Below, in pieces: positions 1 to 54,469 of a DNA stretch of 64,000 nt (positions are counted from its first letter, which is position 1; every line of letters begins with the position of its first letter). A program made the position numbers and the translations under genes. Source of the stretch: Chrysomallon squamiferum (taxonomy: Eukaryota; Animalia; Mollusca); NCBI GenBank assembly GCA_012295275.1, contig CM022679.1, positions 12,648,001-12,712,000 of the forward strand. Reading direction: 5' to 3'. The notes under the pieces are model-generated. The model had not been told where the DNA came from and did not search any database. It worked only from the letters and a program-made list of their open reading frames with translations.

Positions 1-606
1 CTATCTATCCATCTATCTATATGTCTGTCTGTCTGCCTGTCTGTCTGCCTGCCTGTCTGTCTGTCTATCTATCTCTCTATCTATCTACATATCTATCTAT
101 TTATTTCCCGTCATAATCACCATCATCATCATCATTATAATCTTTTTCATCATTACGTTTATCTATTTGCTATTTCTTAGAATGAACAACTAGAATTTAA
201 AGAAAATAAAAACAGAAAACATTTTTATTAAATGTTTGTAACTAACCAGTCGATTATTTTTCAAATTTACATTCACTGAAAGTATCATTTAAAAAAAATT
301 GTTTGTCTGTTTTCAGAATAAAAACAATGGTCAGCTAATATTTTGCCTTATGTCTTAATGTCGCCGTCCATTTTTATCTTCTATATCATGTAACAATTAT
401 TGATGTCTAATTTGTTTTGTGTAAAAACGAAGATGTACGAGAACTAATGTCGACAAAAACGAAGTCAAATCGTTGATTGTCGCTAATTTCCGTCTTTTAT
501 TTCTTACATCTTAAGGCATACATGCACTTGCAAATAACAGATTACGAAAGAAACATACAAGCATAAAAGAAATAACCAAAAAATGAAATCAAATATTTTG
601 ATTGTG

Positions 607-24909: not shown

Positions 24910-27900
24910 GTTAGTCATATGAATCTAGATATAAATATGTAAGTGAATCATTAAATGAAATGTTTCTCTTTAAATAACTGTATTATCACAAAGCCTATAT
25001 TTTATATTACATTCAGTAAAAAAAAAAAAAAAAAAAACATAAAAACAAACAACAAACAAACAACAAGAAAACAAACTTTTAGAATGTTGCTGAACTTGAT
25101 CACAATAACAAAAGTTTGATTGATTTATTGATTGACATAATTATTTATAAATTACTGTTAATTTTTATTTCATGTATTTATTTTATAGTGATGATTTCAC
25201 ACTGCTCAGAAGAAGTGCAGACAGATAGAGCAGAACTGCCTAAGATCTGTAAAAGTGGCAAAACCCCAGCAATAAAGATCAACACAGGACGACTGAGCAT
25301 CATTAACCATCATAATAAAGACATTGTGTTGTACACACAATCAGAAAACTGTTACAAGGTATAATTATGTATAAATTACTATTCCAGATTAAATAACAGT
25401 GTTTAATTACAGTACATGTAACAACTGTGTGGATTATTTAGTTCATCTTTAATCTGTAAAAAGTAATAGTTGTACATGATAGTAGACCAGAATACTTTCT
25501 TAAATTTAGTTTTCTTAAAACATATTTTTTATATAATTAAATAAAATAAAGCAGTGTTTCTTTGGATGAGATCTAGTGTAAAAGAAAATAATATTTAGAC
25601 TTTTGGTGGTTTATAATAGACAAACATATACATATGCAAAACACAAAAACACCCACATACAGAGAGAGAGAGTATTACATAAAACAGTAATAAAATATAG
25701 ATAATTTCCTTGCGTAATATAATAAGTTGCTTAACAATGTATTGTAGTAAAAGTGAAGATGCTGGTTTGCAAAATTATTTCTGGTTTTAATTCTTCATTT
25801 GTAACTTCAGTGCAACCTCATTGCAACAAATGTGATAAAGGAATTGGAAAACTGCACCTTGCTTGTAGATTCTCGCTGGCCAACACGAATTGATATTCAG
25901 TTTGATAATAATACCAGTTTACAAAATTCAGATAGCTCTTGCAGGTTAGTACATGATTTAAAAAGACACCAATTAAATCCAAAATTTTGTTCTAATAATT
26001 TGATATTTAATCTCTCTAATGATATTTTCTACTTTAATAACACAGCAGAAATGAATCACATAATTGTGTTATTTGGGACTGTTTGACTTGAGTGGTAAAA
26101 GTGAAGTACAGGATTAACTAAAATGAAGGAAGATTTTGAAATTTAATTACCAGTAAATAATGATTGGTTTCCTCCTCCAATCTCCAAATTTTATTATGAC
26201 AACCAATCCTCTGTTGATAGACATGTAATGATTTATGTCAAATGTTAAAAATACTTTAAATTACTATTAAAATTTAAAATATAAACCATGCATGTAAATC
26301 AGTGATTCTCTCATACAGTTTGCTTTCAAACTTTTAAACATTGTTGAGACGCCTCAAAAGCTTTTGTTTATATAATTAGTGAAAACATCTTAATAATATT
26401 ATGAAAATTGTTTTTACTCAGGGCTAACCATTAATGGTATGAGGTCTGTACTTTTGAGACTAGCTGATACTCAGCAATAATGACATACAATGCTTTCTTT
26501 CATTTCTGTTTGTATTTTTCAGTTTTACAAAGTTATTCCTTGAACAAGGACAGTATGTTCTGCATGTTAACTTAGATAATGATGATGCAAATTTGATTTG
26601 TAATGGACCCATTCTTGAAAATGATCCAATGGATAGCAATATTCGTATGTTATCAGTTTAATAATAGTTTAACAGTTTAATAAATAAAAACTAAAATTAA
26701 GACAGCTCTGTTCTTGTGGAAGAGCTTATGTGAATATTTATCAGTTGAATAAAACCTCAGACCTTTTAAGTTAAAATTTCACCTTGTAATTATTAAATGA
26801 ACAATCAGATGAATAAATGTTTATTTATATGATAAAACAGAGCTTTTTGCTCTCAACTGTTCAAATGAAATTAATAAACAACTAAATAAATGTTTTACAT
26901 ACCTGATGACACCTTAGTTAATTTTGATTTCTAACCTGTAGTTTAATAAGCATGTGAGTGAATGTTTATTTATTTCAATTTTAATTTTAACAGTTCAGTT
27001 TGGAATAAATAAATTAATTAATTAATTAATGAAAAAATATGAATTCTTATGTTTAATCTGTAGATTAATGAATAAAAATAAATGTTACCTCCTTATTACA
27101 GACAACTCAGAGCATTTTAATTTTGACACTTCTGCTAAAATGAATTAATATGTCTTTTTTAATTTTTATATTTATTTATTTATTTATTTATTTATTATAA
27201 TGGTATTATCATTTTAAACAAGACACTAACAAGGGTCTTCAGTGGATTTTAATTTTAACAAATTTTGTGTATTTATTACGTGGTATTATTTTACAGTGTC
27301 TTTTATTAGGCTAATTTCAGTAGCAATATAATTATATCTTTAAAAGATTGTTTATGAATTTATTTATTTATGTTTATTTATTTTATTTTTTTTCAGCAAT
27401 CTATGTTGCCTTAGCAATAGGCTTAGTTGTATCACTTATCTGGATTTTGTTGAAATTTTTATACAGGTTTGTATATAGAGGAAATAAAGTTTTCTGAATT
27501 CATATCTTTAAGCTAATATATATATCATTAATGATTAAGCAGTATTATTAACTTAGTATTAGATTAATAAATTTTTAAAATTTAACCTGACATTTTTCTA
27601 AATTAAATTCATAAACTGTTTTGACTAATTTGTTTTGTGGTCATTTGATGTACATGGAAGAAAAATGTCTTGTTCTATTAACAGTAGTCAAGATATTGAT
27701 TTATATTATTACTGTATTTAATAAAGTTGTACTGTATCATTATGTTTATCGAATCATTGTCATCATCATCATCATCATCATCATCTCTGTTATTGTTGTT
27801 ATTATTTATTATTGTTACTATCACTGAAAATGATTCTTGATCTCACATTATTTCAGTTAGCTGTAATAATTTGAAAAAACAAAATCACATTTCTCTTTCA

Positions 27901-30900
27901 GAAAAGGTATATTGCATCGTGTATTTTTCTTCTGGAGTACTGAAGGAATTATGGTGGTAAGGATTAAAAAAATATAATTTTTTGTTGTTGTTAGAGCTAT
28001 TTATTTTTAATGTAACATTTTAGATTTTATGTATATTATTTATTTTAGGTTTTATGTATATTATTTATTTTAAGTTTCATGTATATTATTTATTTTGGTT
28101 ATCCGTGTTATATTTTTTAAAACTTTATTTTTGTTGTTTTCTTTCCTGTTCTGATGTTCATTAATTAGGATTTACCTGATAAAAAATAAATAATTTTACT
28201 TTATAAACTGGCATTACTTACTGTTATTGTTACCTAATGATACAAATATTTACTAAATAATAATCTAGTGTTGTATATAAAATAATTATCCTAAAACCAG
28301 CTTTTTGCTTAGTTGACACAACATAAGATTATAAAGCAGATTATCCTCATTCAAATCTTAACATGAAATTAAGCAAACTCTCACATCTCATAACACTTTA
28401 TTCACATTAATTCACTATTATAAAGTGATGCAGTGTGCAGAAGCATTTGCAATACATTTCAGGAAATATTTTATAATCTTTTTCGATTGTGTAGATTATG
28501 AACAAAGATGTTTGAAAGTATCTAACAATACAAGAATCAAATATATGTACAGATAAAAAAATAATAATAAATGAAATAAAAATAAAGAAAAGAGAGAGAA
28601 AGACAAACCTTTAGAAATCACATAGTGTAATCTAGAATATTATTTCTTCAAAATGTCTTCAAAATGTCTTCAAACTAAAAAAAGTATATTTTTGGTATTT
28701 TAATTTAAAAAAAAAAAAAAATAATAAAAGTAATTATAAAATAAAAAAAAATAAAAAAAAAACCAACCAGAAATAATTATAAAAATACACATAGTTATAC
28801 AGTTATATATATATATATCTATATTGATAGTGTAATCTATGATATTATGTCTTCAAACTTAAAACAAAGGTATATTTTTGGTATTTTAATTAAAAAACAA
28901 AAAAAACAACAACAATAAAAGTAATTATAAAATAAATAAAAAATATTAATAATAATAAAAATACACATAGTTACACACACACACACACACACACATATAC
29001 ATATTGATAAACTTGTGTTAGTTTCTAAAAGGTTGCATTCTCTTCCTCAACTGTCACCAAATTATTTAATCACCAAAGTATCATCAAAATTTTGTTACAA
29101 ATTTTCTTCCATAATTTTCAGAATATTATAAACACGGTACTGTATATTATTCTTTCAAACATATTTTACTCTGCTGTTTAGATTTTAACCAAAAATATTT
29201 TACTTTTCATTACTTTTATATAGTCTTCTTTGCATGTCACATTGATTGTATTGCATGATCTATTTGTATTATATCCAAATATATCATCTTCAGTTAAGAA
29301 GTTGGTCTTAACTGAATTATAAAACTGGTCTCAGACCTGAAGGGTCACAAGGTCAATCCTCCTTACTGGACCAGAATAATATTTGTATTTATACATGCCA
29401 TTTTTTTCCCCATTCCAACCATTATCTCAGAAAAGGTTTTTCAAATACTGTAGAAAATGCAATCCTGTCAGAACATATATATATATATATATAAAAAATT
29501 CACTAATGATAATTTGTAAAAGTAACTATGGAGTGGAAACAGTAGGTTTCTTTGCTCTTATCACAGTATTAACACAATTTATGTGTCTTATCCACCAATG
29601 GTTCTTAACATTGAAATGTTTTTACACTGTTATATAAAACTCAGGTATTAATTTTTTGACGTTGTTAAGTTATGATCCATTTTTTCGGTCTGTTTCATTT
29701 CCTTAAAGGTAACACAACATTAAAGTATAAATATAAAGTATAACACAACATTAAAGTATAAATATAAAGCATTGAGTTTATCACTAAGAGTATGTAAATC
29801 TTATTTTCCTCTAATTAACAAATTCAGAATTTATTTTATTTAACTAATGCATATGTTTAATGACTATTTTAGCACTTGCGCTACACATTGAATAATAACA
29901 GAATGTATGGTACTGCGTAATGTCATCTACCTCTACCATAGCTCAATGTTATTACTCATGTTAGTTGTGATAAGGTGCAGTATAACTCTTTACACATGAC
30001 AGGACACCTGTTACATTTTTAAAATGATTAATTAGGTATTGAGTCATTCCATGTCAAATCACCCCCCCCCCCAAAAAAAAACCCGTTAGCATCTGATTAA
30101 CTAAAACCTGAATGATCAATTCTGGATGCTAGATATCACCATCTCTCTTGATCACTGAGTAAGACATTGTATACCTACATGTATGCATAAAGTTCACATA
30201 AATTTGAGAGAACTAGGTGTTTCTGATGCTTAACCTTCTCACCATATTTGTTTCGAATGCTCACTGTATCTTTCATTCCCGGACACATTCTACTGTTCTC
30301 GTCACTTTCATAAAATTGGACTATTTCCTCCTTCAATTCATTTGAGAGAACTTTCCCTTGTTTCTTATCACAGAGGGATAGAATCCCTTTCTCTTTCTTC
30401 GCAGCATGGCATTTTTTCCACAAGGTAATTCATTGTTTCAAATTCATTTGTTGTCCTTTCAGTGGTAAAGGGTGACAAAGTCAAGATTTGCACATGCTCT
30501 GGGTAGGATTTGGACTTCTTGAATTTCTCTATTAACTCCTCCAACATGTTCCTGAATAATTGAAGATCAGATTTTTCTGATGAGTCAAGGTCACTTTCAA
30601 GAGAATAAAGCAGAATATCATAGAATGTTTCAAGATGTTGTTTTAATGTTACTGTAGCTGATGCTAGTTTTTTCTGTCCTTTCATTCTTTTACTGGAACA
30701 TGCTAGTGAATGGAGTTTAACAGGAGTTTCATCTGAACTCGACAGGATGGAATTCAAATCAAAGTCCTTTTCTGGGGAAACAACAACCGGCAGTTTATCT
30801 GGCAAGTTATCATCAAATTCTCCCATAGTAATACCACCCATACTAAAGCCATCCTCTGCAGGGGTTTGGACCTTTGATTTCTGAAGGTTAATCAGACAGT

Positions 30901-33900
30901 CACAGCACAACTTGTCTCCTGGCACTAGTGTCTTTGGATTTACTAAGCATTTGTAAGTGCCCATGCTAACAATTCCTAAAGATCTAGTGATTGCTTGCAA
31001 TGTTGAAAACTTGATTAAAAGTTCTTGTTCATGATGTGAACAGATACTCTTGATGTCCCTGTGTTTTGATGCCACTTCGAAGAGTGAGGAGTTTGACTTC
31101 CTCCGTTTTCCATACACTTTGCAACAACTCCTTTTTGGTATGATGGTTGATAAAACACATTTTCAGGAGAGTTAAAGCTGCAGTTAGCCCTTGGAAGAAA
31201 TAAGTATTGGCCTGCACCTTTAATTCAATAGAACAAAGTCAGTGCTTTCCTAAATATCAAATCAGATCCTGAAACCCTTTCAATAAAGTTAAGCAGGTCA
31301 TAAACTGGCTGCAGAGTACATGTGTTATTGCCAAAGGCCCACAAGTCTTGGGCATTTAGGTCCAACTTTTCAGGAATAAATCACAGCTTATCAAGGTGAA
31401 GGTAGACCTTGTTCATACTCTGTGCCGAAGACTGGGTGTACAAATACATTATGCAGTAGATCACTTGATGAAGTCTGATTTCAGACTGGGTTGTACTATA
31501 GTTGACTGAAACCTTGTTCAAAACCAATGGCAAGGCCACATGACATGATAAAATGACTTAATAGGTTTTATGAAGAAAACATAATGCTTACATATCAACA
31601 TCTGACATTGTGTCCAACTTGAAAGCTTCAGATTGTCAAAGAAATGCAGATGAAGAAACTTCTTTGTCTTAAACTTCTAAAAGCCATGTGCTCAATGGGG
31701 ATTGCACCAGGGGATCTAAAGGAGTTCCTGACCTGCCTGAAGCATCACTTCCTGTTAACCCTTTGAGCCTGATTGTGTAGAACATGTCATGCCATTTGGC
31801 ATCTTTTCATATCATTCAGGCATTCCTTCAGACATGTCAGGTGGGTTTTAACTCCAAAGATGAGTTTTTGGTCTCTGAGAAGTGTATACATGTAAAAAAT
31901 GTACATTGTAATGCATTTTGTCAATCATCCATACAGGTATGCATTTTTTAAATCTATATTATGGCTAAACAAAAAATATTACACCCAGGAAACTTTTATA
32001 TGTTTTAGTTAACATGTGGGAGATTAAATTTCAATAAAGGTCATCTCAAGGTCACATGATCCACACAGTCAATTTCAAGGTCATAACAAAGGTCAAAAGG
32101 TCAGTGACCCCAAATTTTCCAAACTGAACAATAATGGCAGATTTGGAATCCTTGTCATATTGCCCTTTCAACAATACCAATTTTATGAAGATTGGCCCAG
32201 TAGTTCCTGAGATATGAGGGCTAAAATGTTGCTGGTCATACCCATTTTCGCCCAAAATCTCAAAATTTGGTGGGCCTTATCTCCCACACCACTGATCCAA
32301 TTGGGCTAATATTTCAGATTTGGTGCTGTGGGATCCCAGTCAACAAGTATACCAAGTTTTATAAAAATCGGAGACAGTCGGGTTTAACTCATTGGGTGAT
32401 TTGACACGGAATGACCCTATTCATTTCCAAAGTAAGGACAACACATATCAAGTATTGTCTGAGATCACTCTTGTTTGCTAGGTATGAAGGACAATAAAGC
32501 ATGAACTATAATATGTACTTAGACTGTCCAATCTAACCAAACTGTATACAAGAAGTTTGGTTGTTAATTCTGAGTTATGTATTTGACACTAGGTAATTAC
32601 TGTAAACAGATTAAATCCTATTCTGTCTGTATCAGTGTATTCCTGTCCCAGCCAGTGCTGTGCAGTGGTTTGTCAAAGGTCATGGTGTACGCTTTTACTA
32701 GATGAATAAGAGTTGCAGTGGGATTTTTTTCTCATAATTTCTGTGATTCTGACCTCTGTGTTTGATGCTATATAACCATACACTGTTATTCATTTTCTGT
32801 TACTGTTCAAAAAGAAAAAAAAAGAAAAAAATGAAGCATTTTTGACTTTAAGATTTATCTGTGATTTTGTCTACGTACTAATTTGTAATTATTTTTTTTT
32901 TATAAATCTTATTTACATATATATATATAGAGAGAGAGAAAGTTCTGTTGAAAAGATAAACAAGTAATGATAAAAATACATCCGACCTTGAAATTTTGAA
33001 TATTACAACTTATTTGATGAGTTTTGTCTCCAATTTTTTTTTTTTTTTTTTTTTTTTTATCCAGTGTCATCTTATATTGGAGACTATTATAGAAAATATC
33101 TTCAAATTATTTAGTAACATTGTGATGGTAAAAATATTTTACTCTATCTTAACTGTTTTAATATTTTAGTTATGATGGATGCTTCTACTCAGAGTGTAGC
33201 TTTTTCTAGCAGAAACAACTAAAAGAATATTAATCAAACTTTATTAATGTGTATGTTTTTGGACTGGGGAGGCATTTCTTTTCAAGATTAATAACTAAAA
33301 CAAAATCTTTTTTAACCTGTTTATTATGCAATACTAACAAACATTACATGCGAAATGGAAAAGATTGAAGTTTATTTTATGGTGTACTTTTTTTTTAAAT
33401 TTTGTTAGTGATAATGTCTGAAGTAATTTTTTGGTAGTCAAACTTAGACAGAGTTTTAGTGAACTGTTAAATTCAAGTCTTGTTGAACATCATCAGTTAA
33501 TAATTTAATTTCAGCTTGTATTTAAAGGAGGCCATGTTCAGGTAAGTTATTAAAATCTGTGTTTGTGGTGAAGAGATAATATATATATGTAAGATTTTGT
33601 TTTTAATGTTATTTTGTTATTGTTTTATTATTGTTTCATTTTAAGAATAAATTATAATAACAGGGTCTTTCATTTTATATATATATAGATGAGTTTTAAA
33701 ATGTACATATATAATTATATAAGATCTTGTTTGTTTAATTTATTTTGTCATTGCTTTATTGTTGTTATTGTTATTTCTTTTAAGAACAAGAGTACTGATG
33801 CAAAAGTTATAATACTAGGGTATTTCAGTTCTTAACATCTTTTTTCTTTTTTGACTTTTGAAATGTATTATTATTTTCATTAGTCCTTGTGAATAAACTG

Positions 33901-33985
33901 TTACAAGTAACAGAAGCATCCTTACACATCTTCAGTATTAGAACACATGTATAAATTATAACCCTGTTTTATATAATTATATACA

Positions 33986-34047
<62 letters not shown>

Positions 34048-37000
34048 CATTATGATAATATAATACTTCTGATGTCATTATTTTCTATTGAAATAAAATT
34101 TAATAACATTGACTGAAATCTGAAATATTTTCAGCATTCAGTAGTTTGAATAATCTAGTAGACTTCCTTTTTTATAACTGAACTCATTTCATCTTGAAAT
34201 ATCAACTGCATCAAGAATGTCTCATCTGTTCTGAAACCTTGAATATGCCTCTGATGAAGATGCTTCATAAGAGATAATGATTAATTCTGTATAATTCTTT
34301 TTCTTTTCTTACAAATAAATTTTATATCATCTTATGCTATGCTTTTTTTTTATATTCATTACTGAATATATTAAGAACAAAATAATTGTATTTCAAATAC
34401 TGTTCCACATCATTAGCATTTCTACTGTTTTTACTGACTTTAAATTATCTTGTTAGTATTTATTTATTAAATTATCATTATTATTATTATCATTATTATT
34501 TACTTTTGTCAAGAGACTGTTACTTACATATTATTATCACTATTTTTAGTGTTGTATAGAAAACAGGTTTTTTCTTCTTGTTTAATGTTATTCTTCTCTT
34601 TGTATACAGGATCTTGGCACCCCCACAAATATCAATGCAAGTGAGGTGCCTGTTGGTGAATCACCTTCTAGGAAGGAAAGATTGCGATCTTTAGATACTT
34701 TCAGAGGGTGAGCATCTCAGTATTTTATTACATGTTGTATATCATTATTATAATAGATATATTCACATTTACCATATGACTATTAGGTTTGTAATGATAT
34801 TGTTATAACAAATGATATATAAGCATATCCTGTTGTTTATTAGGTTTATAAGATATCATTATGACAAATGATATATTAATGTTTCCACTGATTATTAGGT
34901 TTGTAATGATATCATTGTAACAAATGATATATTAATTTATCCCGTTGATTATTAGGTTTGTAATGATATAGTTTGAGCACACAAATTTCCAGATACTGGG
35001 TGAGTGTAATATAGTAACAAGTTAAGACAAAAAATATGTTTTAACAAGGACACAGTCCGTAGAAAGTTAGTAATAACCACTAATGTATTCATTACTGGTA
35101 TCACCATAAAATGGCCAAAAATTTAACTATATGGCAAAAATAGATGATTCCCACATATTTTACTGGACTGGTGTGTGGACTAAAGAACAGTCAAAATCTT
35201 GGGCCACTGTAATAGTTATTAAAGATTCTCAAGATGTTAATTTGATCAAAAATTTGGATTAAGAAATTCCATTATTAACATTATTATGATGTCATAAAAT
35301 ATACTAAAAACTTCAAATCTTTAGTTTCGAGTTTACAATTTTATCCAGAGAGGAGCAGTTTGACAAAGACAAATACATTTGTTTATTTTAGGATTTCCAT
35401 CTTGGTAATGATATTTGTAAATTTACGAGGAGGGGAATATTGGTTTTTTAAACACTCCAAATGGAATGGTCTTCATCTGGCAGATCTAGTATTTCCATGG
35501 TGAGTTGCTACTAGCAACAAGCATGATGCTGTTAGAGATGGCTTCAGCATGGATGTGGCTAGATTATTGCTATATTTTGTGCATGACCATAGACTATGCA
35601 TGTTGCTGTATTGAAAACTGTTGGGCTTTCACTAATACATCTTCTTCTGCATGTTTTTCTTACAGCTAGAACTAATTTATTTTTCCTTCCTTTCTGTTTT
35701 TCTGTATTATTTTTGGCAATTTATTTATTTAGTAATTTTTAATTGTCACATTTTATAGCAGCTACATGTGTGCAGTAATATCAAAATGTGCATCATTGTT
35801 ATCTTATTTTCAGCTGTCTGCCTTTGCCTTTTTATACACATACACATGTTTTTTGTTTTTTAACTTACCATAGAACATACATGATATATATTGAAGCAAC
35901 ATGGTATGGTGTAAAGTTAAAACAAATATACATTCATTGTACATTAAATAATTAAATAAAATACTACTATAAATGAAAGAAGAGTTTATTAAATTACTGG
36001 ATTTTTTTCAAAGCAGATTTTTTTAGAGTAATTCTGTCAGGTCTGAAAGATGTGACAGGCCATTAGTAATGAAAAATTATCTGGTGTACATTTGTGTTTC
36101 ATTGACAGATTTGTTTCAGTTTGTAGTAGATTATTTGCATGTCCATTTGTTAGTTCATTTCTAAAATTTATGTTTCAGTCTCAAGATACTGGTTGAAAAT
36201 TCATTAACCAAAATCCAAAATATCTTTTAGAAAAACTAAAACAATTTTAATTCCTAATAGCATAAAAAGCATTATTTGTATGATTAATTATATTAAAAAA
36301 TATTTAGATTAATTTGTGTGTATCATTATAGATACATAAACACACTGGCATCAAACCATTTATCATGCAAAATTACGACCATAGGTGACCAGGACTTCCA
36401 AAACTCTGGTTTTCTGAACCAAGGCTTTAATAAATACTTAAAGTATAAAATAAACAACAAAAAGTAAAGAACAAAACAGTTTATAACAGATACAAATTAA
36501 CAAACTTCTAAAGCCAGTTTTCTGGTTATTCTGGTTTTCGTGTTAAGCCAAATAAATGGTTCAAAACCTCCATTATCCTTTAGATTGTTTAAAATCTATT
36601 CCCAAACCACAAAATTTTGGATAATGAATAATAAACCTGTATCTTAATTTACATCTTTGTTTCTTTGTTTGCCAATCTGTCCATACTTCTGTTTATCTGT
36701 TGTTTGATTAATATGCATGCTTCCTTCTCTCTGCATAGACTGAGTTTAGTGGTTATGAATTTTGTTAACTATGGTGGTGGTCGTTATTGGTTCTTTGCTC
36801 ACTCTAAATGGAATGGAATCACTGTGGCTGACCTTGTGTTTCCCTGGTATGTAGACATTGACACTTCTAACTAAAACTGTTTGTAGAGTATTTCTTTTAA
36901 ATTATGAAATTTTTTGTTTATTTATTATGTCTTAAAAGTAATAAACTGGTACAGGGTATCTGAAAAATAATGAAATAAAATACATTTTAAAATTTTAGAA

Positions 37001-38821
37001 ATTAAAATGTAAAATATTATCGTTTATTATGTCATAAGTTTATTTATTACATTTAGAATGTGTATAACAAAGAGTGGATTTGTATTATTTGTTTCTTCTT
37101 CATAATAACTGGTAGATTAGAATTATGTAATACAATAAAAAGTGTTATTATTATCTTAATAATTATTATTTTTATATTATAGCTTGTAATAAAAAATTAA
37201 GTAGTCTTATTTGTGACTATTCTTAGAATATCTTGTGAAATAAAAAGTATTATTGTTATTTATTACTTTTTAACTCTAAATATACTTCTTGTTAAAATAC
37301 ATAATCATAATATTATTATTATTTTTTTTTTAACTGTAATTATTATGACAGTATATGTAATAAAACACAAAGTAGTATTATTTATTAATGAATAATTGGT
37401 GGAGTATCTTTTCTAAAATAAGTATTGTTATTTATGTGTTAACTGTAATTGTTTTTGAGTATATCAAATCAGTAACATTTTTAAAGATATTTTATTTGTT
37501 ACATCATTAGATTTAACACAGGTGATCTACATGTTTCAAATAATAACTATAAATCAGGAATTACATATTTGTAATTTAAATGATACTGATTTTATAATCA
37601 GGTTTGTCTTCATAATGGGAACATCCATGGTCTTCAGCTTCAACTCACAACTAAAGAGAAACATGACCAAAAAGAGAATGTTTTTAAAAATCTTAAAACG
37701 TTCAATCATCCTCTTTCTCCTTGGTCTTATGCTGAACTCTGGTGGAGGTATGTTCAAATGACAAAAAAAATTCAGTTGATTTTGGATTCAATTTTCTTTC
37801 ATTTCTTTTCTTTGTTTTTGTTTTAAAATATGGCTACTGTGTATTGTTGCTTTAAAGATATATATTGTTGCTTTGAATAACAAAAACGCAGCTAAATAAA
37901 AGCATCCACAAATAACAACCACTAGATAACAATAAAAATAATAATAATAACGAAAATCAGTTATAGGAAAGTTTTATACAGCTATAATCTAATTTTATGT
38001 TTTTGTATTAATAAATTTTTCCTTATTTTTGTATTTTATTTCAGGAGTTGAATTAACAAAATTACGAATACCTGGAGTGCTACAGCGTTTTGGTGTGACG
38101 TACCTGATAGTTGCAACAATCCACTTATTCTTTGCACGGACAGCAGATGAACATCAGGTAAATCTTCCATTGTTTTTATTAAAACCTTCTTTACAGTCCC
38201 ATTTGTGTGTGTGTGTATGTATGTGTAATTGTATTACTGATCACTGATTTTCAACATTGTTTTGTTTTGTTTTTAATTACAGTTTTAGTGTTGGTAGTAT
38301 TGCTAAGGAAATGTTTTTCAGTGATCATGGTTATTGTTAGTAATTGCATTATTTTGTATCTATTTTTATTTTAATATAATATAACATAATATAATATAAT
38401 ATATTTTTTTAAATCTTTTAAATTTTGTTTTCAGTATCGTTGGTGGTCTCCAGTGAGAGATATACTGGACTACTGGTTGGAATGGGTTATTCACATTATT
38501 CTGCTGATTGTTTGGTTTGGGTTGACGTTTGGTCTCGAAGTACCTGACTGTCCCAAGTACTGAAATATTCACTTCAGAAATTAATTCACACATACTTCAT
38601 ACAAAAGCAAAACTACAGCAGTTATTTCATTTGATGGTGTTAAGAATTTTCAACTTGTGAACTTATATAGACCCTCATACAAAGATTCTTTTATTAAGAA
38701 ACACGTCATATAAAGAAACACGTCATTTAATTACTGTATATTTATTCAGCTGTCTATCCGTCAATCCACCTATCAAGACAAACACATGAAGCACAAACAC
38801 AAAAACATACACATGTATATG

Positions 38822-38855
<34 letters not shown>

Positions 38856-39219
38856 CACACAGATAGACAAATATGCACTCACACATAATTTAATTAGTGT
38901 TATGAATTTATACTCAGAGGCTATCTTGGTCCAGGAGGCTTAGCTGATGAAGGAAAATATCCTAACTGTACTGGTGGAGCAGCTGGTTACATTGACCGTC
39001 TGGTCTTTGGTATTGAACACATTTACCAACACAGCACTCCCCAGGTGAGGCCACTGCGTATACACGTACACAATACTGCCTCAAATAAAATAAAATAATT
39101 TAAAAAATAGACAATAACAAATAATGTTTTTTTTGACATGTAATGTTTTTTTTATATATATATAACACTATGGTGAGAGTAAAGTAAAACAAAAAAAAAT
39201 ATCTTTGTATTTCTAAACC

Positions 39220-39279
<60 letters not shown>

Positions 39280-40450
39280 ATATTAAAAAGAAAAGATGAT
39301 AACTATAACAATACTACTATTATTTATCAAAGATTATTATTATTAGTTATCTATCATTATTCAGAATTGTCAGACTCCATGACATTAAAGAAACAATTGT
39401 CTTTATATTTCTACAGATTGAGATAGAGTAGAATATTAAAGAAATAAACTGGTAGTAATATGATTAATACAGTATCATTTCCAACTAATATAAATATTGT
39501 CTTTATTTTTACTTTCTTATTTATTTATTTTTTTATTTTTTATTTTTTTTTTTTTTTATTTAATTTGATTATATTTTAAAAAAAATTGTTATTTGATTTT
39601 ATTTAACTTTTATTTATTTTCATTTAATTTTATTATTACTGGGTTTTTTTTAATCAGTTTATCAGATTAATTTCTGCTGGCTGTGCAAAAAATAATATAT
39701 GAAGCATCAGTATTTAATATTGTTTTTGTAGGAAATTTATCACAACATTTTGCCAAATGAGCCTGAAGGTCTGTTAGGAACATTGACCTCCTGCTTTATG
39801 TGTTTCCTTGGTGTTCAGGTCTGTGTTTAACTTAATTTAAAAATTAACTATCATTTATTTTAAAAGATACGTTTGTTTAATTAAAGATTAAGTGATTTTC
39901 ATCCTGAACAGTTATGTCCCCTTACAACATTATGAGAACACAGGGCAAGGGTAAAAGATATATATATATATATATATATGTAATATATAAATATTTATAA
40001 CTACATTACATAACTAACCATATTTCTGTAATAGTAGAACATTTAATCTATGGGTTCCACCATAAAAATGATTTGAAAAGGGATGGTGAAAGTTATTTTT
40101 TTAAGAACTGCTGATTTTGTTATCTGAAATCCTAAGCTATGACACATTTAAATTACTTTGATAGATACAGGTTAATAGTTAAATGTCCTTTATCAGAAAA
40201 TCCAAGTAACCTGAATTTTTAATTTTGTTTGGTACAAATATTGTGTTATAATTTAAATAATTTTTATCCTTTTATTTCCAGGCTGGTAAAATTTTATTTG
40301 TGTACAAAGATTGGGTTCTCCGAGTTAGACGTTTTATTGCCTGGGCTGTTGTCCTGGTATGTTTTGTGTTTATCTTACATGAATGATGAATTATGAAGTT
40401 AAAACAAAATTGTATTAATTACTGAATTAGCAGGATAGTTATATAACATA

Positions 40451-40486
<36 letters not shown>

Positions 40487-41158
40487 AAGTACTGTCACAT
40501 TTATGAGTAATATTAAAACCAGTGCATTTCGTGGATTTTTAAATCTTGTGTCCATGCATAATGTTGTTGTTATTTTTTAATTATTGTCCTTGTTATTGTT
40601 ATTACTAGTTGCTACAACTACTGTTTCTGCTGTTACCACTATTACTAATATGCAGGTCCATCTTAACAGCATTATAGGCCATCTAGGCAAAGCAAAACAC
40701 TAGTATCTTTTTGTACACATGAAAAATGTATTTACAGCAATCCACAGCATGCATGGCCTGCCTGCACATTCCTCTACCAGACTGCCCATGCCTTAAGACT
40801 ATCAAATGTACTACTACTACTGCTGCTGCTGCTACTACTACCACCACTACTGTTGCTTACATACCATGGCTTTTGTTACATCAGTTAGAACATATAATAA
40901 TAATTCAAGAATGACACATTCATTGCTGTTCAATCTCTCTGAGACATGCATGTTATTATTTACATACATTTTTAATCTTCAAACAGGGAATTATTGGTGC
41001 AATATTGACAAAAGGAAGTAAGAATGAAGGTTGGATTCCAGCATGCAAGAATTTGTGGTGAGTTCTGAATTAATGTATCAGCAAAAAAATATTTTTCCTA
41101 CTTCCATTCATCCATCCATCCATCCATCCATCTATCCACCCAGACATACATACATACA

Positions 41159-41189
<31 letters not shown>

Positions 41190-42399
41190 TTGGCCTTACA
41201 CAAAAAAAAAAAACACAGACAATGAAATGTGTTTTAAGAGCATACACATTGAAAAGAAATACCTGTCATCACATATAAAAAGGAATGTATTACAACTGTT
41301 TCAGGTCAATGTCATTTGTTATCATCTTGTCATCGTTTTGCCTTCATTCTTCTGATGATGTGTTATCTTCTGGTAGATGTGTGGAAAATCTGGAGTGGAG
41401 CCCCTTTTTATTATCCAGGTAAATGTTTAACATTTTATTTTATTTTATTTCTTCTTCTATAGAACATTTCTTAATTTGTTTTGATGCTTGGTTGGGACAT
41501 GCTTATGTATAGATGCATGGAGGCTTATGGTTATGGTCATAGTAACACTAACAACACAATCATTTAAAATCTGACTGCAAAAATAATAATATTCAGTTGG
41601 TACTAAATAAATGGGAAGCATTTAAAGATGAAAAAATATATAATGATAGTGACTGAAATTGTATATATTATAGACATTAATTAACGTTATAATATGTAAT
41701 GAAAGTGACTGAAATTGTATATATTATAGACATTAATTAACGTTATAACTATGTCAGAAAATGAATAAGTAAGCTCTACATCTTAAAAATTATTTTATTT
41801 CATATCGCCTTTCTTTCTAAATTTTCTAAATTTTCTTATTTTATCTGTTTATTAGCCTATGAATTTATATATTGTCTTCGTAAATTTTAAATCTAAATTT
41901 TTCACACATGCTTTATAAATTTTTATTTGCATGAATTTAGCTCCTAACTCTTATTTGTGTTGTCTCTGTAAATTTTGTTACTTCTAGTTGCATGAATTTA
42001 ACTGGAAGCTTTGCATGAATTTAACTACAAATTCTTGTGTATATTTTTACTTCACGTATTGTGTTCTTTTTTCTCTCTGCATGCTCTCATCTTTTTTTTG
42101 TTTTACTTGTCACACTGTTCACTTTCTGCCAGGCATGAACTCTATCTTTATGTACGTGTGTCACGAAGTGTTTAGTTCCTTCTTTCCTGTGTCGGTGTAT
42201 GTGAAAGATGAACACAGTTTAAAGCTGCTGATGGCTGTCTGGGGTCCGGTGTTCTGGTGTCTCATCACATACAGAATGCACCTCATGAAAATGTACATCA
42301 GTGTCTAACCACATGCTTCCTTCTTCTCTGTCAGCTGGTGTGTATTTCTCTTCTCTAATACTTCTGTTTGAACCTTCTAGCTGCTTTCTAGAATATATT

Positions 42400-42441
<42 letters not shown>

Positions 42442-42763
42442 CTACATACATAAATACATTACATACATTATATACAGACAATAAACAAAATAAATATGTA
42501 ATACATTCATTCAGTACACACAATAAATATTTGCCTACATATATACATACATACATGGATATATTACATATGTCACATACTCAATACATGCTCCCATGCA
42601 ATATCTACATAGATATATGTATGTATGTATGTTGTGGTATTATTTTTGGTAATGGTTTATATTGGTATAACATATTTATATAAATTTATGCATAAAACAA
42701 ATAACATATTTAGTTTTACTGTTATTCTGAATATAATTGGTATATTTACTTTAATGAATTAAT

Positions 42764-42818
<55 letters not shown>

Positions 42819-43212
42819 CACATACATATACATAAATACGTAGATTACATTATAATATTCTGAAAAGATTCCATTTTTATGCAATATGATTAAATTATAT
42901 ATTAAAAAAAAAAATCATGTTAAAATTAGACAGTGATATTCCAAAGAAAAAATACTGAATAATTTTTGCTTGTTTTTTTTGTCTTATTCATTCATAAAGC
43001 TTTCAGTGTTTATTACTTATTTGTTTTTCTTTACAGGTATGAATCCTATAGTGCTTTACGTTGGACATGAACTTCTTATTAAGACTTTCCCTTTTTACAT
43101 CCATGTAAATAAAACACACACAGAGCAGCTGGTTCTTAGCATCTGGGGAACATTTCTCTGGTTCTTGGTGGCTTTGTATATGGATTACAAATATATGTAC
43201 GTCACTGTTTGA
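24426..43212 (+). CDS. HGSNAT: Heparan-alpha-glucosaminide N-acetyltransferase, about 610 aa. Exons: 24426-24471, 25189-25358, 25811-25944, 26523-26644, 27397-27466, 27902-27956, 34610-34707, [8a 35392-35499 or 8b 36739-36846], 37602-37747, 38045-38157, 38435-38556, 38918-39044, 39732-39818, 40282-40356, 40987-41057, 41305-41418, [17a 42133-42308 or 17b 43037-43212]
   Basis: Motifs [113 protein letters not shown]. All junctions are GT-AG with consistent phases, apart from one extra T in exon 16 (41336-41339). Confidence 0.96.
28620..28975. repeat. Imperfect tandem duplication of about 200 bp in HGSNAT intron 6
   Basis: ATAGTGTAATCTA...TCTTCAAACT...GTATATTTTTGGTATTTTAATT...TAAAAGTAATTATAAAATAAA...AAAATACACATAGTTA occurs twice, starting near 28622 and 28827. 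Confidence 0.75.
30041..32417 (-). mobile_element. Sola2-type DNA transposon, internally deleted and non-autonomous (2377 bp), in HGSNAT intron 6
   Basis: 24-bp TIRs GAGTCATTCCATGTCAAATCACCC (30041-30064) and GGGTGATTTGACACGGAATGACCC (32394-32417), 22/24 identical. 4-bp TSD TATT on both sides (30037-30040, 32418-32421). GRG...CYC termini with a 4-bp TSD fit Sola2. Contains a broken transposase-like frame. Confidence 0.85.
30175..31160 (-). pseudogene. Frameshifted N-terminal part of the Sola2-like transposase; the catalytic region is deleted
   Basis: Overlapping ORFs 30368-31117 and 30175-30423 give ICSHHE, KLCCDC, QILTLSP and [23 protein letters not shown]...[13 protein letters not shown]. 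The last block is recalled from this transposase family. The frame breaks off about 110 bp before the TIR. Confidence 0.75.
32615..32790 (+). mobile_element. Decayed tRNA-derived SINE, same family as 12185-12385
   Basis: TTCCTGTCCCAGCCAGTGCTGTGCAGTGGTTTGTCAAAGGTCATGGTGT...AAGAGT...GTGGGATTT...TGACC...GTTTGATGCTATATAACC follows the recalled motif order of a gastropod SINE core. Confidence 0.45.
33515..33541 (+). CDS. HGSNAT: Candidate 27-nt cassette microexon of HGSNAT (LVFKGGHVQ)
   Basis: tttaatttcag|CTTGTATTTAAAGGAGGCCATGTTCAG|gtaagt. Consensus acceptor, perfect donor, multiple of 3, stop-free in phase 0, which is the phase of intron 6. Confidence 0.5.
34770..34970. repeat. Minisatellite of about 56-57 bp, roughly 3.5 copies, in HGSNAT intron 7
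   Basis: TATTAGGTTT recurs at 34781, 34838, 34893 and 34950, each followed by GATAT and, in the first three copies, CAAATGATATAT. Confidence 0.85.
35392..35499 (+). CDS. HGSNAT: HGSNAT exon 8a (alternative, divergent copy of the catalytic-His exon): [36 protein letters not shown]
   Basis: ttttag| acceptor and TG|gtgagt donor. 108 nt, phase 2-2, stop-free, homologous to exon 8b. Confidence 0.9.
35521..35676 (+). promoter_or_regulatory. Intronic splicing-regulatory cluster downstream of exon 8a: five (T)GCATG Rbfox motifs and two ACTAAT STAR/QKI-type motifs
   Basis: GCATG at 35521 and 35547; TGCATG at 35580, 35597 and 35648; ACTAAT at 35631 and 35671. Confidence 0.7.
36739..36846 (+). CDS. 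HGSNAT: HGSNAT exon 8b (canonical-like catalytic-His exon): [36 protein letters not shown]
   Basis: ctgcatag| acceptor and TG|gtatgt donor. 108 nt, phase 2-2. TGCATG at 36714-36719, next to its polypyrimidine tract. Confidence 0.92.
40653..40808. mobile_element. Possible decayed hAT-type MITE in HGSNAT intron 14
   Basis: Starts CAGGTCCATCTTAA and ends ...GCCTTAAGACT, resembling CAGGGCCGTCTTAA...TTAAGACGGCCCTG ends. The right end is degenerate and no TSD was found. Confidence 0.3.
41649..41748. repeat. Direct duplication of about 44 bp in HGSNAT intron 16
   Basis: GTGACTGAAATTGTATATATTATAGACATTAATTAACGTTATAA occurs twice, about 56 bp apart. Confidence 0.85.
41928..42083 (+). promoter_or_regulatory. 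Rbfox TGCATG cluster upstream of the exon 17a acceptor
   Basis: TGCATG at 41928, 41989, 42012 and 42078. The first three share the longer context TTGCATGAATTTA. Confidence 0.65.
42133..42308 (+). CDS. HGSNAT: HGSNAT alternative terminal exon 17a: [58 protein letters not shown]
   Basis: ctgccag| acceptor, phase 1, 176 nt to TAA. It has its own AATAAA signals at 42480, 42489 and 42522, upstream of exon 17b. Confidence 0.9.
43037..43212 (+). CDS. HGSNAT: HGSNAT alternative terminal exon 17b: [58 protein letters not shown]
   Basis: ctttacag| acceptor, phase 1, 176 nt to TGA. Aligns to 17a without gaps. Confidence 0.9.
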
Positions 43213-50225: not shown

Positions 50226-53200
50226 TCAGTAAATAAAATTCTTTGATGATGTTGTTTTATCCAGGGAGGGGACAACTTCCTCGATGTCACTCTGCAACTT
50301 CTTGTACTCACCACCTCGTGATGTACGTCTACGCTGTCGACTTGACCTGCCTTCCACAATGAAGGCAACTATCTGTAAAGAAAAAAAATATATATATATA
50401 TATAAAATAAAAATTTGTGAAGGTGTAACCTAAAATAATGTGAAAGAATGAAATGCAGTTATATGACATCATAATCTTTGTTAAACTGTAGTCAAAATTA
50501 AAAAGAATACAGCAGTTAGAAGAAAAATCTGTAACAAATTTATAAGATGCTCTGCAATCAAAAGTAATAAGATGTCAAATGAGAATAAAAACTAAAATAT
50601 ACATTCATTATTTATTTGTAATCCCCATGGAACCCCCAAAAAAAAAAAAAAAAAAAACCAAACAATATCAGACATCATGCAGAAATTAAATACCGGAATT
50701 TTATTTAACTTTTAACAAAATAAACAATATTAAGAATAGTTTAACATTCAAAAGGGCTGGAATAGGAAATAATGCATTGGATCTTCAAACACATAAAACT
50801 ACTGATTAACAGTATGCTAATAAAGACAGGACAGAGGACAGATTACATTTTTCAGTAAAAAAACAAAATGTATCCTAACTTGTAAAAAATGTCTCCAGAA
50901 AAGAATTTAATAACAAAACAAACTGAAATAAACAATAAAGTAAATACAAAAGACAACTAATTCACCTTCTGTTTGTTGTGAAAAACTACATAACCCGCTA
51001 TACAAAAGACAACAGCAGTCAGAAAGTAAGCCATGAAGTGCCCGGAACCTGGAGAGTCATCTTCGTAGTTGTAGCCAGATATTTTGTTTGAGTCGCTGTT
51101 CGAGAGATGTACTGACTTATCATCATTCTTGCCAAAGTTAAAATCTTTTGTCCTTTATTCACATGGGGAGGCCTGTTTGGCTTTGTATCTGTTGTAGTGT
51201 GAAAAGAAGAAAGCCAGGAAGACTTTGTCTTTTCTATCTTGTCAGTGGATGCAGAAGGCTTTGTCGCTAACACCTCTGTCTTGTTTTCTGGTGCTGATGC
51301 CTGTGTCTTGTTTTCTGGTGCTGATGCCTGTGTCTTGTTTACCAATGCATTAGTCGTGGAATTAACATACGGATCTTCTTTAGTGATGAGCTGATCTTTG
51401 TTTACTGCTTGTCCTGACTTGTTACTGCTCACAACTGATCCCAGCGTGTTGCTAGCACTATCAAGCGTTTTGTTCATTCCGTCATCAATGGGTCTTCCAG
51501 TAAAGTAGCGTCGTATGTTTGTTTCTCTGTTACCATAATCAGAATTTTTAGGACCTGTCAATGTTTTGAATCCATTTGTGCCTTTGTCAACAGGGAATCC
51601 AGCTGTACCTTTATCAGTAGGGGATCCACTTCTGCCTTTGTCAGTACGGAAGACACCTATACCATTGTCAGCTGGGGATCCACCTGTACCTTTGTCAGCT
51701 GGGTATCCACTTGTGCCTTTGTCAGCTGGGGATCCACCTGTAGCTTTGTCAGCTGGGTATCCACTTGTGCCTTTGTCAGTAGGGGATCCACCTGTACCTT
51801 TGTCAGCTGGGGATCCACCTGTAGCTTTGTCAGCTGGGTATCCACTTGTGCCTTTGTCAGTAGGGGATCCACCTGTACCTTTGTCAGTTGGGGATCCACC
51901 TGTACCTTTGTCAGTAGGGGATCCACCTGTACCTTTGTCAGTAGGGGATACACCCATGCCCGTTTGTCTTGGAAATCCACCTGTACCTTTGTCAGTAGGG
52001 GATCCACCTGTACCTTTGTCAGTAGGGGATCCACCTGTACCTTTGTCAGTAGGGGATCCACCTGTACCTTTGTCAGTAGGGGATCCACCCATGCCCGTGT
52101 GTGTTGGAAATCCACCTGTGTCTGCTGGTAATCTACCTGTGCCACTACCATCTATAGACTGACTGCCATTCAGTGTTTCACCTGTTGCTCCTGCAATAGT
52201 GTATGTTGTTCTATTAATGTGAACCTGTCTATGACCTGTTAATTCTGGCAAACTATCTTTTGTTGTTGTCCTTGTTTTGTTAACATTAACTGAAGTGCTG
52301 TTGTTAGTTTTGTTGCCCATACTCTGTTCAGTGTTGTTTCTCTTTTCATCAACAGATCCATGTTGATGATTATTATTATTCTTATCTGAAATATCAGAAG
52401 TGGTAGGAACAGCTTTGTTATTTCCTTCTAATGTATCTAAAGGCAAATTTCAAACAAAAAGAATAAAACAAGAATAGAATCTCTTCGAAAATAAAACTGG
52501 AGTCTCATATTGCAATCTAACTAGATTTTTGGTTACTATTATTATTATTATTAATTTAATTTATTTTTTGTTTGTTAAATATTTCCTTTCCTTTTATTCC
52601 ATAAATACGCTGTTATAATTGTGTAATTAAAGTTTTAATAACTTTTTTATATTCATAACATTGGTTGAACTGGGTTCAGTTTATTCTTTACCTGAAAGAA
52701 ATCATTTATGATCACTGCTTGTTATTATAAATAATAAAGAGTTAAAGCATTGAAAATGTACACAACCATATTACATCCATTAAAATATTTCTTTTCCATT
52801 TCATCAAGCGCGTGTGTCTATGTTATGTACTACACATTTTAACTTCTCAGGATCAGACCACTGATAAAGTTACAATTAATCAATAAAAGACAATATTATA
52901 CAGTTACACTTACTTTTATCAGAATGACTAAAAAGAATTTCAGTTGTTCCAACCAGTAACGCAGATACGATTGCCAAGTCTTTGTTTTTTGTACGTAACT
53001 CCGTACATTCATTTGCTCTGACAAATTTAACAAACTCAAAAAGTGAACTTTTTGTTCGATTGAATTTCTTTTTCTGACTTTCAAATATTTCACAAACATC
53101 CATCTTCTTTTCTACTAAAGCTAAAAATGTTGTCTGGTTTAAATATTTTTTAGTAAACGAAATGTATTTTTCTTGACATAAAGTTTGTGTCAAGAATGCA

Positions 53201-53442
53201 ATGCTTCTACAAAGACCGTCAACGAATGGTTTACCACTTCCGTTAAAATCCGACATACACGGAGTCAGAGGTGGTTCGCTTCCCAGTAACATAAATGTCG
53301 GTGGATATCCACAGCCTATGGTTTGTGAAAATTTAATACTTTTACTAAATAATTCACTAACATTTTGTGTATCGCTAGATTCACAGAAAGAAAATACTAA
53401 TGTTACAAAAAACACAATTACAATTCGCTTATTGAACGCCAT
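50226..53442 (-). CDS. TGOLN2 (TGN38/46) / C5orf15 (KCT2)-family type I membrane glycoprotein, about 715 aa; exons 53442-52914, 52436-50966 (contains a 1-nt frameshift), 50372-50226
   Basis: Signal peptide MAFNKRIVIVFFVTLVFSFCES, a Cys-containing N-terminal domain and a long Thr/Ser/Asn/Gly-rich stalk. After a frame change it reads YEDDSPGSGHFMAYFLTAVVFCIAGYVVFHNKQK|IVAFIVEGRSSRQRRRTSRGGEYKKLQSDIEEVVPSLDKTTSSKNFIY*. This matches the family signature HF.AY..T......YI..HNK.KI.A...EG.....Y.+L. Splice sites are canonical and phase-compatible. Confidence 0.88.
51577..52116 (-). repeat. Coding 27-bp minisatellite, 20 units, consensus peptide GGSPTDKGT
   Basis: Plus-strand unit GGATCCACCTGTACCTTTGTCAGTAGG. 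Variants include GGFPxxTGM, SGYPADKAT and GGSPADKGT. Confidence 0.95.
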
Positions 53443-54469
53443 GTTGTTGAATTGTTCGTTCCGTTTAATTTCCTCCTATATTGAAACTGAAAGAACCGAT
53501 TCTATTATTCTTTGTATAAATTCCTCCATACGGTTAAAGGAAGCGATAAAACTTAAAATACTTTTTCTAAATGTAATTTTATTGGCTATTAGTGTAATTT
53601 ATCAGTAATGCTTATATTTGAAATGCTTGGATTTTGTTCGAATAATATATATATATATATCACACCTTTATGGTACAAGACTATATTTGCAGAAAGGCCT
53701 ACATAAAGTAAAACATGTTCAGAGTACTTAAAAAATAATTATTATTATAAAGAATACTTACACAAATAATTTACAGAATCTTGTATCAAAGTGAAAATAT
53801 TGTACACTGGTACATACGATGATACATTTAACAAAGAAAAATTGTAATTTTAATGTTAATAAAAGAAGAAGAACAACAAAACAAACCAAAACAAAACAAA
53901 AAATAAATAGATAAAAATACAATAAAATATTTTTAGTTCAGCAGACATTTTGTGTCCTTTTGCTAGATTCTTAACTCAATAAGGTTCTTTTCCTCAAACT
54001 TATATTTGATGTCTTTTGTGAGGTTCTGCTGATTCAAGCCTTGTTGGAACATAAAAATATAGTCTTCATAAAAAGAACTGAAATCATAATTTAAAAAGAT
54101 AACAAAATTCAAAATGTCTCAAATTCAAAATGTCTTTAAAAGCAATATTAATATAACTTTTTATTTTCTTTTTTTTTCAGGAGATATTGCCCTTTAGGTT
54201 TTCTTACAGTGACCCATTATATGCTAACTAGACAGCTGGGTTTTTTGTTTTGTTTGTTTGGTTGTTTTGTTATACAGTGAATAGACAATGTCTGTTTTTT
54301 TATTATTATTATTATTATTAAATATTCTGATATTCTGGTTTATATTAAACTGTAATTTGCCATTAATAGAAATCCCAATGTTTGTCCACATATTTCCTTT
54401 AACTGTTGTAATGACATTTTTCTATCCTGCACTTTTTTTTATTTTTATTTTTATTTATTTTTTGCTTTC

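Follow-up and report, generated by a model that had tools for sequence, protein, structure and literature searches.

Our analysis of a 64,000-nt stretch of the Chrysomallon squamiferum genome (hereafter the window) shows that the gene for HGSNAT, the lysosomal enzyme whose failure leads to Sanfilippo C disease, carries two intact copies, here called A and B, of an exon that encodes part of its active site. We consider it probable that the two copies are used singly, that a transcript containing both, which gains a stop codon, is degraded, that the choice between them is made by Rbfox-type regulation, and that their exchange tunes the entrance to the active site.

At least 17 HGSNAT exons were placed in order by tblastn of mollusc HGSNAT proteins against the window (Table 1), and the true first exon lies further upstream, outside the mapped span. 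Over the core exons, Gigantopelta aegis (72%) and Haliotis (67-69%) supply the best matches in the protein collection searched. The exon peptide aligns with HGSNAT chains of human origin in the PDB (E 3.8e-14), exon B corresponding to residues 278-311 of the 663-residue chain, which are residues 250-283 of the 635-residue isoform; residue positions follow this alignment and the papers cited. Both exons retain the equivalents of N258, H269 and D279, a sequence match that places them in HGSNAT and its TNAT fold. A Pfam scan of the A and B peptides and of the intronic open reading frames returned nothing above cut-off.

Table 1. Features of the HGSNAT locus, in window coordinates
Feature	Position	Strand	Remarks
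HGSNAT gene body	25236..43212	+	From the first aligned exon to the stop of the distal last exon
Upstream constitutive exon 7	34610..34707	+	Phase 2 end, with the first two bases (GG) of a Gly codon; joined to both A and B in RNA contigs
Exon A	35392..35499	+	End of TM2, luminal loop 1, start of TM3; N258/H269/D279 equivalents; starts with G, ends with TG
GCATG cluster after exon A	35521..35653	+	Five GCATG, three TGCATG; putative Rbfox enhancer
Single TGCATG	36714..36719	+	25 nt before exon B; putative Rbfox silencer
Exon B	36739..36846	+	Second version of the exon A segment; first base A
Downstream constitutive exon 9	37602..37747	+	First base G completes a Trp codon
TGCATG cluster before proximal last exon	41928..42083	+	Four TGCATG; putative Rbfox silencer
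Putative alternative last exon a (proximal), coding portion including stop	42133..42308	+	TM10b, luminal loop 5, TM11; 57 codons; AG-bounded
Putative alternative last exon b (distal), coding portion including stop	43037..43212	+	Same length as a

Some other features of the region deserve mention. Between exons 6 and 7, a candidate 27-nt phase-0 micro-exon with good splice sites (33515-33541, +) would fall in cytosolic loop 1; RNA contigs splice exon 6 straight to exon 7, bypassing it, and the Gigantopelta and Haliotis models have optional inserts of 5-6 residues at this joint. A GC-richer patch of the long intron 6 holds, on the opposite strand, open frames of 84 and 264 codons (30175-31162, -), for which Pfam gave no match above cut-off and which are possibly a transposon remnant. 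Elsewhere in the window lie an exon (690-1298, +) that we take to resemble a core-1 beta-1,3-galactosyltransferase and, on the minus strand, a long exon with a 9-residue Gly/Ser/Pro/Thr repeat (51019-52449), preceded by a frame with a signal-peptide-like start (52876-53475); together the last two are predicted to encode a mucin-like secreted protein.

Exons A and B are adjacent, homologous and part of one gene, each 108 nt long in phase 2-2, with AG before and GT after (GTGAGT for A, GTATGT for B) and 1239 nt between them, which makes them tandem duplicated exons and agrees with the description in the initial annotation. They have 24 of 35 residues in common and are identical at 69 of 108 bases. 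Codons match at first, second and third positions in 25, 29 and 13 of 35 cases, and different codons are used at 14 of the 24 common residues, so that the divergence of third positions beside conserved residues, which the same annotation had pointed out, is confirmed. Synonymous sites between A and B are saturated (pS 0.77, pN 0.24); exon A compared with a bivalve-like locus (L001) gives pN 0.14 and pS 0.68, the overall ranges being 0.14-0.24 for pN and 0.68-0.79 for pS. In line with this, exon A is 91% identical to the Gigantopelta exon, and among 40 of the 59 recorded differences there are two SNPs in exon A and three in exons 7 and 10, all five of them synonymous. The proposed dN/dS-type comparison thus finds pN below pS in both contrasts, and the data support an old duplication of which both copies are constrained.

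As an explanation of the pair, an assembly artefact, or a decayed or paralogous gene copy, has practically no standing. Whole-gene tandem copies do exist in other animals, as on an arthropod-like contig with two complete HGSNAT-like genes in tandem (L003), a locus that was rejected as an exon pair on that account. Here the repeat is limited to one exon, its synonymous sites are saturated and its flanks are unrelated, the window self-comparison detecting no duplication in them. RNA contigs, moreover, link A and B to one upstream exon. The single-exon repeat and these joints refute the artefact or paralogue, as the initial annotation had argued with regard to the assembly. Neither a tblastn search of the whole window nor a low-threshold HMM applied to 33-40 kb turned up a third copy, and the exon-end pattern occurs at exactly two sites in the window, those of A and B, against 0.00 expected (100 shuffles). 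Two insect-like exon types, considered as a further pair, belong to different paralogous genes; in four insect-like loci, L047 (about 1084-1120), L016, L019 and L040, the true exon is directly preceded by a short, incomplete repeat of its own start.

Transcripts of Chrysomallon were represented by four RNA runs from one study, as contigs over 34580-38170, which can show the presence of a joint and not its absence. Among the junctions that had been put forward for counting, both those of exon B are found in all four runs (34707>36739, from 7 to B, at depths of 23-58; 36846>37602, from B to 9, at 37-73), the joint from 7 to A (34707>35392) in two (X1 and X4, depths 14.8 and 10.3) and the joint from A to B (35499>36739) in one (X4, depth 6.1). 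The joint from A to 9 (35499>37602) appears in none of the four contig sets, and neither does a joint from 7 to 9. B and exon 9 share a single uninterrupted contig in every run, and B is the version spliced through in all four samples; A runs into its own intron or, in X4, to B. The missing A-to-9 joint is the main result against a productive either-or reading, and our expectation that A is used productively in this species through that joint therefore rests on its relatives. The intron from 7 to B is covered at a contig depth of about 2-15 and that from B to 9 is uncovered, which might mean slow splicing of the cassette; owing to DNA carry-over, AT bias and record filtering, we count this coverage as no evidence.

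The relatives were studied as 30 protein clusters and further cluster representatives, all of them automatic gene models. In these models, isoform pairs that are identical except for this segment occur in 17 mollusc species, 8 gastropods (Haliotis rubra, Haliotis rufescens, Patella, Littorina, Babylonia, Pomacea, Biomphalaria and Physella) and 9 bivalves (Mercenaria, Ruditapes, Magallana, three species of Mytilus, Mizuhopecten, Argopecten and Pecten); both Haliotis species have three versions of the segment. As far as gene models go, the proposal that the exons are used in an either-or manner is thus upheld in gastropods and bivalves, and in Chrysomallon the B form is present in RNA and the A form would be its alternative. 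All four Gigantopelta models have the A-type exon joined to exon 9, and no stored protein longer than 300 aa contains two copies of the exon motif. The swap is also modelled in the horseshoe crab Tachypleus (P0111/P0197) and in Lytechinus variegatus (P0136/P0208). One version only is found in Gigantopelta (4 models), Liolophura (4), three Octopus species, Tubulanus, Centruroides, a Logan cluster (9) and the second Dreissena paralogue.

The age of the duplication was approached with a tree of 49 rows and 35 columns, from which Mytilus edulis and Mytilus trossulus were omitted as near copies. The A and B labels require a single change in 98% of bootstrap trees, a value as low being reached in 0 of 500 shuffles; the columns are few, and the A/B split itself is weak and not starred (59/88). 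Thirteen B-type exons, from gastropods and bivalves alike, form a starred set (95/83), and the duplication is therefore likely to predate the gastropod-bivalve split. Within this tree the exon A of the window pairs with Gigantopelta (98/93) and exon B falls in the B set, where its neighbour is the third version of Haliotis (99/76). The two sea-urchin exons cluster with each other (97/91), pointing to a duplication of their own and to convergence, and the horseshoe-crab pair has no clear placement.

How inclusion of both exons is prevented depends on the codons split at the joints. The productive joints read as Gly (GGG at 7|A, GGA at 7|B) or Trp (TGG at A|9 and B|9); at the A|B joint, the TG of exon A and the first A of exon B form the stop codon TGA. 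At least nine junctions lie downstream of this stop, and decay is expected by the usual metazoan rule when a stop precedes downstream junctions. The initial annotation had reasoned that including both exons would keep the frame, and that exclusion had to be enforced by splicing rather than by nonsense-mediated decay. The triplet count is indeed kept, but the frame is unreadable because the joint is itself a stop. Since many exon junctions separate the TGA from the 3' end of the coding region, decay can serve as a backstop to exclusion, and transcripts with both exons are likely to be degraded by this route; and since the A-to-B joint occurs in X4, splicing alone does not forbid double inclusion. 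The second part of that reasoning is thereby overturned.

The junction stop refers to Chrysomallon squamiferum only. Metagenome contigs were scanned for the exon end, giving 52 loci, with the same 108-nt bounds in 44 of the 52 matches; no locus among the 52 carried both exons of a pair. In 21 distinct homologous exons from these contigs the first base is A in 2, G in 12, C in 5 and T in 2. Given these two cases of A, the first base of exon B, and with it the TGA joint, may also have arisen by chance. Models in which both exons are absent exist in Mercenaria and Tachypleus, and exclusion is in this sense leaky.

The same stop raises the question of whether exon A might mainly be a poison exon in this species, spliced in before B so that the resulting TGA and decay lower the output of HGSNAT. 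The RNA joints recovered would suit such a role, with 7 joined to A in two runs, A to B in one and A to 9 in none, and A followed by its retained intron reads TGG TGA, an immediate stop. A poison exon, however, requires no constraint at the protein level, whereas exon A keeps every catalytic residue, is 91% identical to its Gigantopelta counterpart, has a pN far below its pS and shows only synonymous SNPs. In addition, A-type isoforms are full proteins in the models of the 17 molluscs and of Gigantopelta. We judge this role to be quite unlikely, and prefer the reading in which A and B are alternative protein-coding versions.

U2/U12 incompatibility, steric hindrance and frame shift are the routes to exclusion that are counted in the sections of PMC5740500 drawn on here. 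The first was rejected for A and B, as there is no U12 donor at a splice site; so was the second, which would require a branch point less than 50 nt from the donor, the nearest CTRAY being 132 nt after the donor of A. The A-to-B joint speaks against both. Another possibility is that either-or use is real and is enforced by competing RNA pairing between a docking site and selectors, the stop and the GCATG words being incidental. RNA pairing is a known route in other exon clusters (PMC5740500), and the A-B intron does contain one inverted repeat of 32 nt at 84%. Nevertheless, among 25 of the 199 inverted repeats, all are AT-rich and none offers two competing partners per site. The region of the A 5' splice site folds no better than shuffled sequence (z -0.83), intronic similarity to L001 is limited to AT-rich words, and the A-to-B joint does occur. 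The search for docking-site and selector pairing that had been suggested, carried out on the introns of one species by means of the listed inverted repeats and the fold at the A donor, thus found nothing convincing, and we regard this mechanism as very unlikely. In our preferred reading the junction stop backs up the exclusion.

The pair can also be set against a strict standard for mutually exclusive exons, for which the text of PMC5740500 available to us asks for a joint bridging each exon and rejects pairs with joining reads unless a frame shift follows. A joint bridging A, from 7 to B, is found in all four runs. One bridging B, from A to 9, is found in none of the four contig sets and is present in the models of relatives. 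The A-to-B joint in X4 joins the two exons without a frame shift, and, unlike the joining reads accepted in that work, it keeps the frame and is itself the stop, so that a pair such as A and B would fall through the rule. We do not file A and B as strict mutually exclusive exons; at the protein level the pair works like one.

What the exchange may do to the enzyme can be approached from the human structures. In the parts of PMC11357348 used here, N258 is at the luminal end of TM2 and hydrogen-bonded to acetyl-CoA, H269 sits in luminal loop 1, and the lining of the luminal entrance includes H269, D279 and H586/E587. PMC11199644, likewise consulted in part, describes in HGSNAT an H297-D307 dyad (equivalent to H269-D279), N286 (equivalent to N258) as stabilizing the intermediate, and M282 and F310 as gates; the dyad and these three residues all lie within the duplicated exon. 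In the window, M254, N258, H269, D279 and P283 are identical in A and B. Across the 16 species tabulated, neither type shows any change at the N, H, D or M, and F282 is replaced by M in three B-types.

The differences adjoin these residues, as had been noted from the window alone, at positions 255, 260, 263, 268, 271 and 275-277. Position 260 is R or K in 12 of 16 A-types and G in all 16 B-types; position 268 is K, R or H in every A-type (16/16) and mostly D, A or N in B-types; position 271 is K or R in 14 of 16 A-types and D in 10 of 16 B-types; and position 255 is I in all A-types and N or C in 10 of 16 B-types. The labels were chosen by eye, and a loop-free re-assignment to the A and B of the window agreed with them in 14 of 16 pairs, disagreeing for Babylonia and Tachypleus. 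The loop carries a charge of +2 or +3 in A, against -2 to +1 in its partner, in 15 of 15 other mollusc pairs, and of +2 in both exons here. Two features of exon A are common to Gigantopelta, namely a Leu in place of the nearly invariant Tyr after N258 (35424-35426) and His-Leu at 276-277 (35474-35479).

With the catalytic residues the same and their neighbours different, exchanging one exon for the other probably tunes the luminal entrance in its charge and its shape, and thereby acceptor preference or pH optimum, without altering the reaction. The two versions could instead be enzymatically equivalent, each being kept as the spliceable version of some tissue. That the known catalytic and gating residues in the exon are all identical, that several lineages have one version only and that this species lacks the contrast in loop charge would fit such equivalence. 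Type-specific residues at 260, 268 and 271, on the other hand, persist across classes. We see equivalence as unlikely, a tentative alternative to tuning of the entrance.

As regards the choice between A and B, the window contains clusters of Rbfox-type words at suggestive places. Within 200 nt after exon A there are five GCATG against 0.58 expected (0/2000 shuffles), the densest 200-nt window in the 64 kb. The TGCATG before exon B stands between branch-point-like words and the pyrimidine tract and does not reach significance by itself (p 0.08). Ahead of the proximal last exon there are four TGCATG against 0.15 expected (0/2000 shuffles). Windows of 200 nt with at least three GCATG number 16 of 2552 over the 64 kb, and all of them lie at the two alternative cassettes. 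The arrangement of an Rbfox switch, (U)GCAUG downstream of A and upstream of B, is weakly common to L001, where a TGCATG lies 16 nt after the A-type exon and three such words are found downstream and none upstream (p about 0.02). In 17 of 21 distinct homologous exons of other animals, no GCATG-type word is found in the next 200 nt.

According to the position rule given in the portion of PMC11874969 used here, a downstream word enhances and an upstream word represses. From this rule and the C. elegans precedents (PMC3585155, used in part), we infer that Rbfox would promote A at the expense of B, and the distal last exon at the expense of the proximal one. A would be switched on where Rbfox is present, through the words downstream of A and upstream of B, and by the same logic the proximal last exon, which encodes another wall of the luminal entrance, would be repressed. 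In the nematode unc-32 (7a/7b) and egl-15 (5A/5B), UGCAUG flanks a tandem exon pair as it does here, and the downstream exon of egl-15 is repressed from its upstream intron, as predicted for exon B. In unc-32, by contrast, the word follows the second exon and double inclusion was not detected, whereas here the cluster follows the first exon and the A-to-B joint is seen (PMC3585155). For A and B, unlike these two genes, both Rbfox binding and Rbfox control are presumed from the words.

The duplicated last exon, which like the (U)GCAUG clusters is absent from the initial annotation, is predicted to form a pair of alternative last exons in this species. Versions a and b have 20 of 57 residues in common and each ends in its own stop, followed by AATAAA/ATTAAA, the signal after a being AATAAA. 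Counterparts of a occur in models from Haliotis, Patella, scallops, oysters, Mytilus and Mercenaria. Of the species compared, 11 have models of two versions, and in 9 of these one version clearly scores highest against the a of the window (166-226 vs 84-124), as does the other against b. Two cases depart from this pattern, the a model of Gigantopelta, with a frame change part-way, and a chiton pair, two versions that show no such sorting. The frame change is seen in the Gigantopelta models P0039, P0149 and P0150 and would be either a genome error or decay. In the structure, as described in the sections of PMC11357348 consulted, the luminal entrance is framed by luminal loops 1-3 and 5, of which loop 5 also makes up the dimer interface, and TM11 at its start is in contact with loop 1. 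Since the last exon encodes TM10b, loop 5 and TM11, and A and B encode loop 1, both cassettes line the same luminal entrance.

Tandem duplicated exon substitution is a known kind of variation (PMC9741552), to which A and B belong. Like the homologous mutually exclusive exons treated in the consulted parts of PMC9741552 and PMC5740500, they are ancient tandem exons of the same length and phase in a folded membrane protein, and their swaps are conservative and near functional residues. HGSNAT is not named in the main texts of these two papers, nor in the supplements examined of both and of PMC8373072, and no description of the exon pair was found by title or opening abstract in the accessible literature. 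The A/B swap is already contained, without description, in the RefSeq models X1-X8 of mollusc HGSNAT-like genes, and the X1/X2 models of Tachypleus and Lytechinus variegatus show the same either-or exchange of the segment as those of molluscs. Human HGSNAT (PDB 8jkv, 8vkj, 8tu9; PMC11357348 and PMC11199644, both in part) has the same segment with N258, H269, D279 and P283. Its two isoforms differ, as far as PMC11357348 describes them, by alternative start codons only, whereas the mollusc gene has two exchangeable cassettes.

A bolder proposal, which we put forward as speculation and consider unlikely in its full form, is that molluscs assemble the acceptor entrance from the A/B and a/b cassettes, each duplicated independently, and that these are switched jointly by Rbfox, giving tissue-specific enzymes with either a basic rim, suited to the polyanionic ends of heparan or heparin, or a neutral to acidic one, suited to other glucosamine acceptors, for instance chitosan-like fragments, or another pH, under the policing of a conserved TG|A stop. 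If true, TG|A would represent a decay-based safeguard for frame-preserving exon pairs, which surveys based on frame shifts reject.

Taken together, our findings illustrate how a stop codon can guard a frame-preserving exon pair, one that the validation rule in the consulted text of PMC5740500 would discard. They also point to natural, long-conserved active-site variants of a disease enzyme, which in molluscs may combine two or three versions of the loop with two C-terminal versions.
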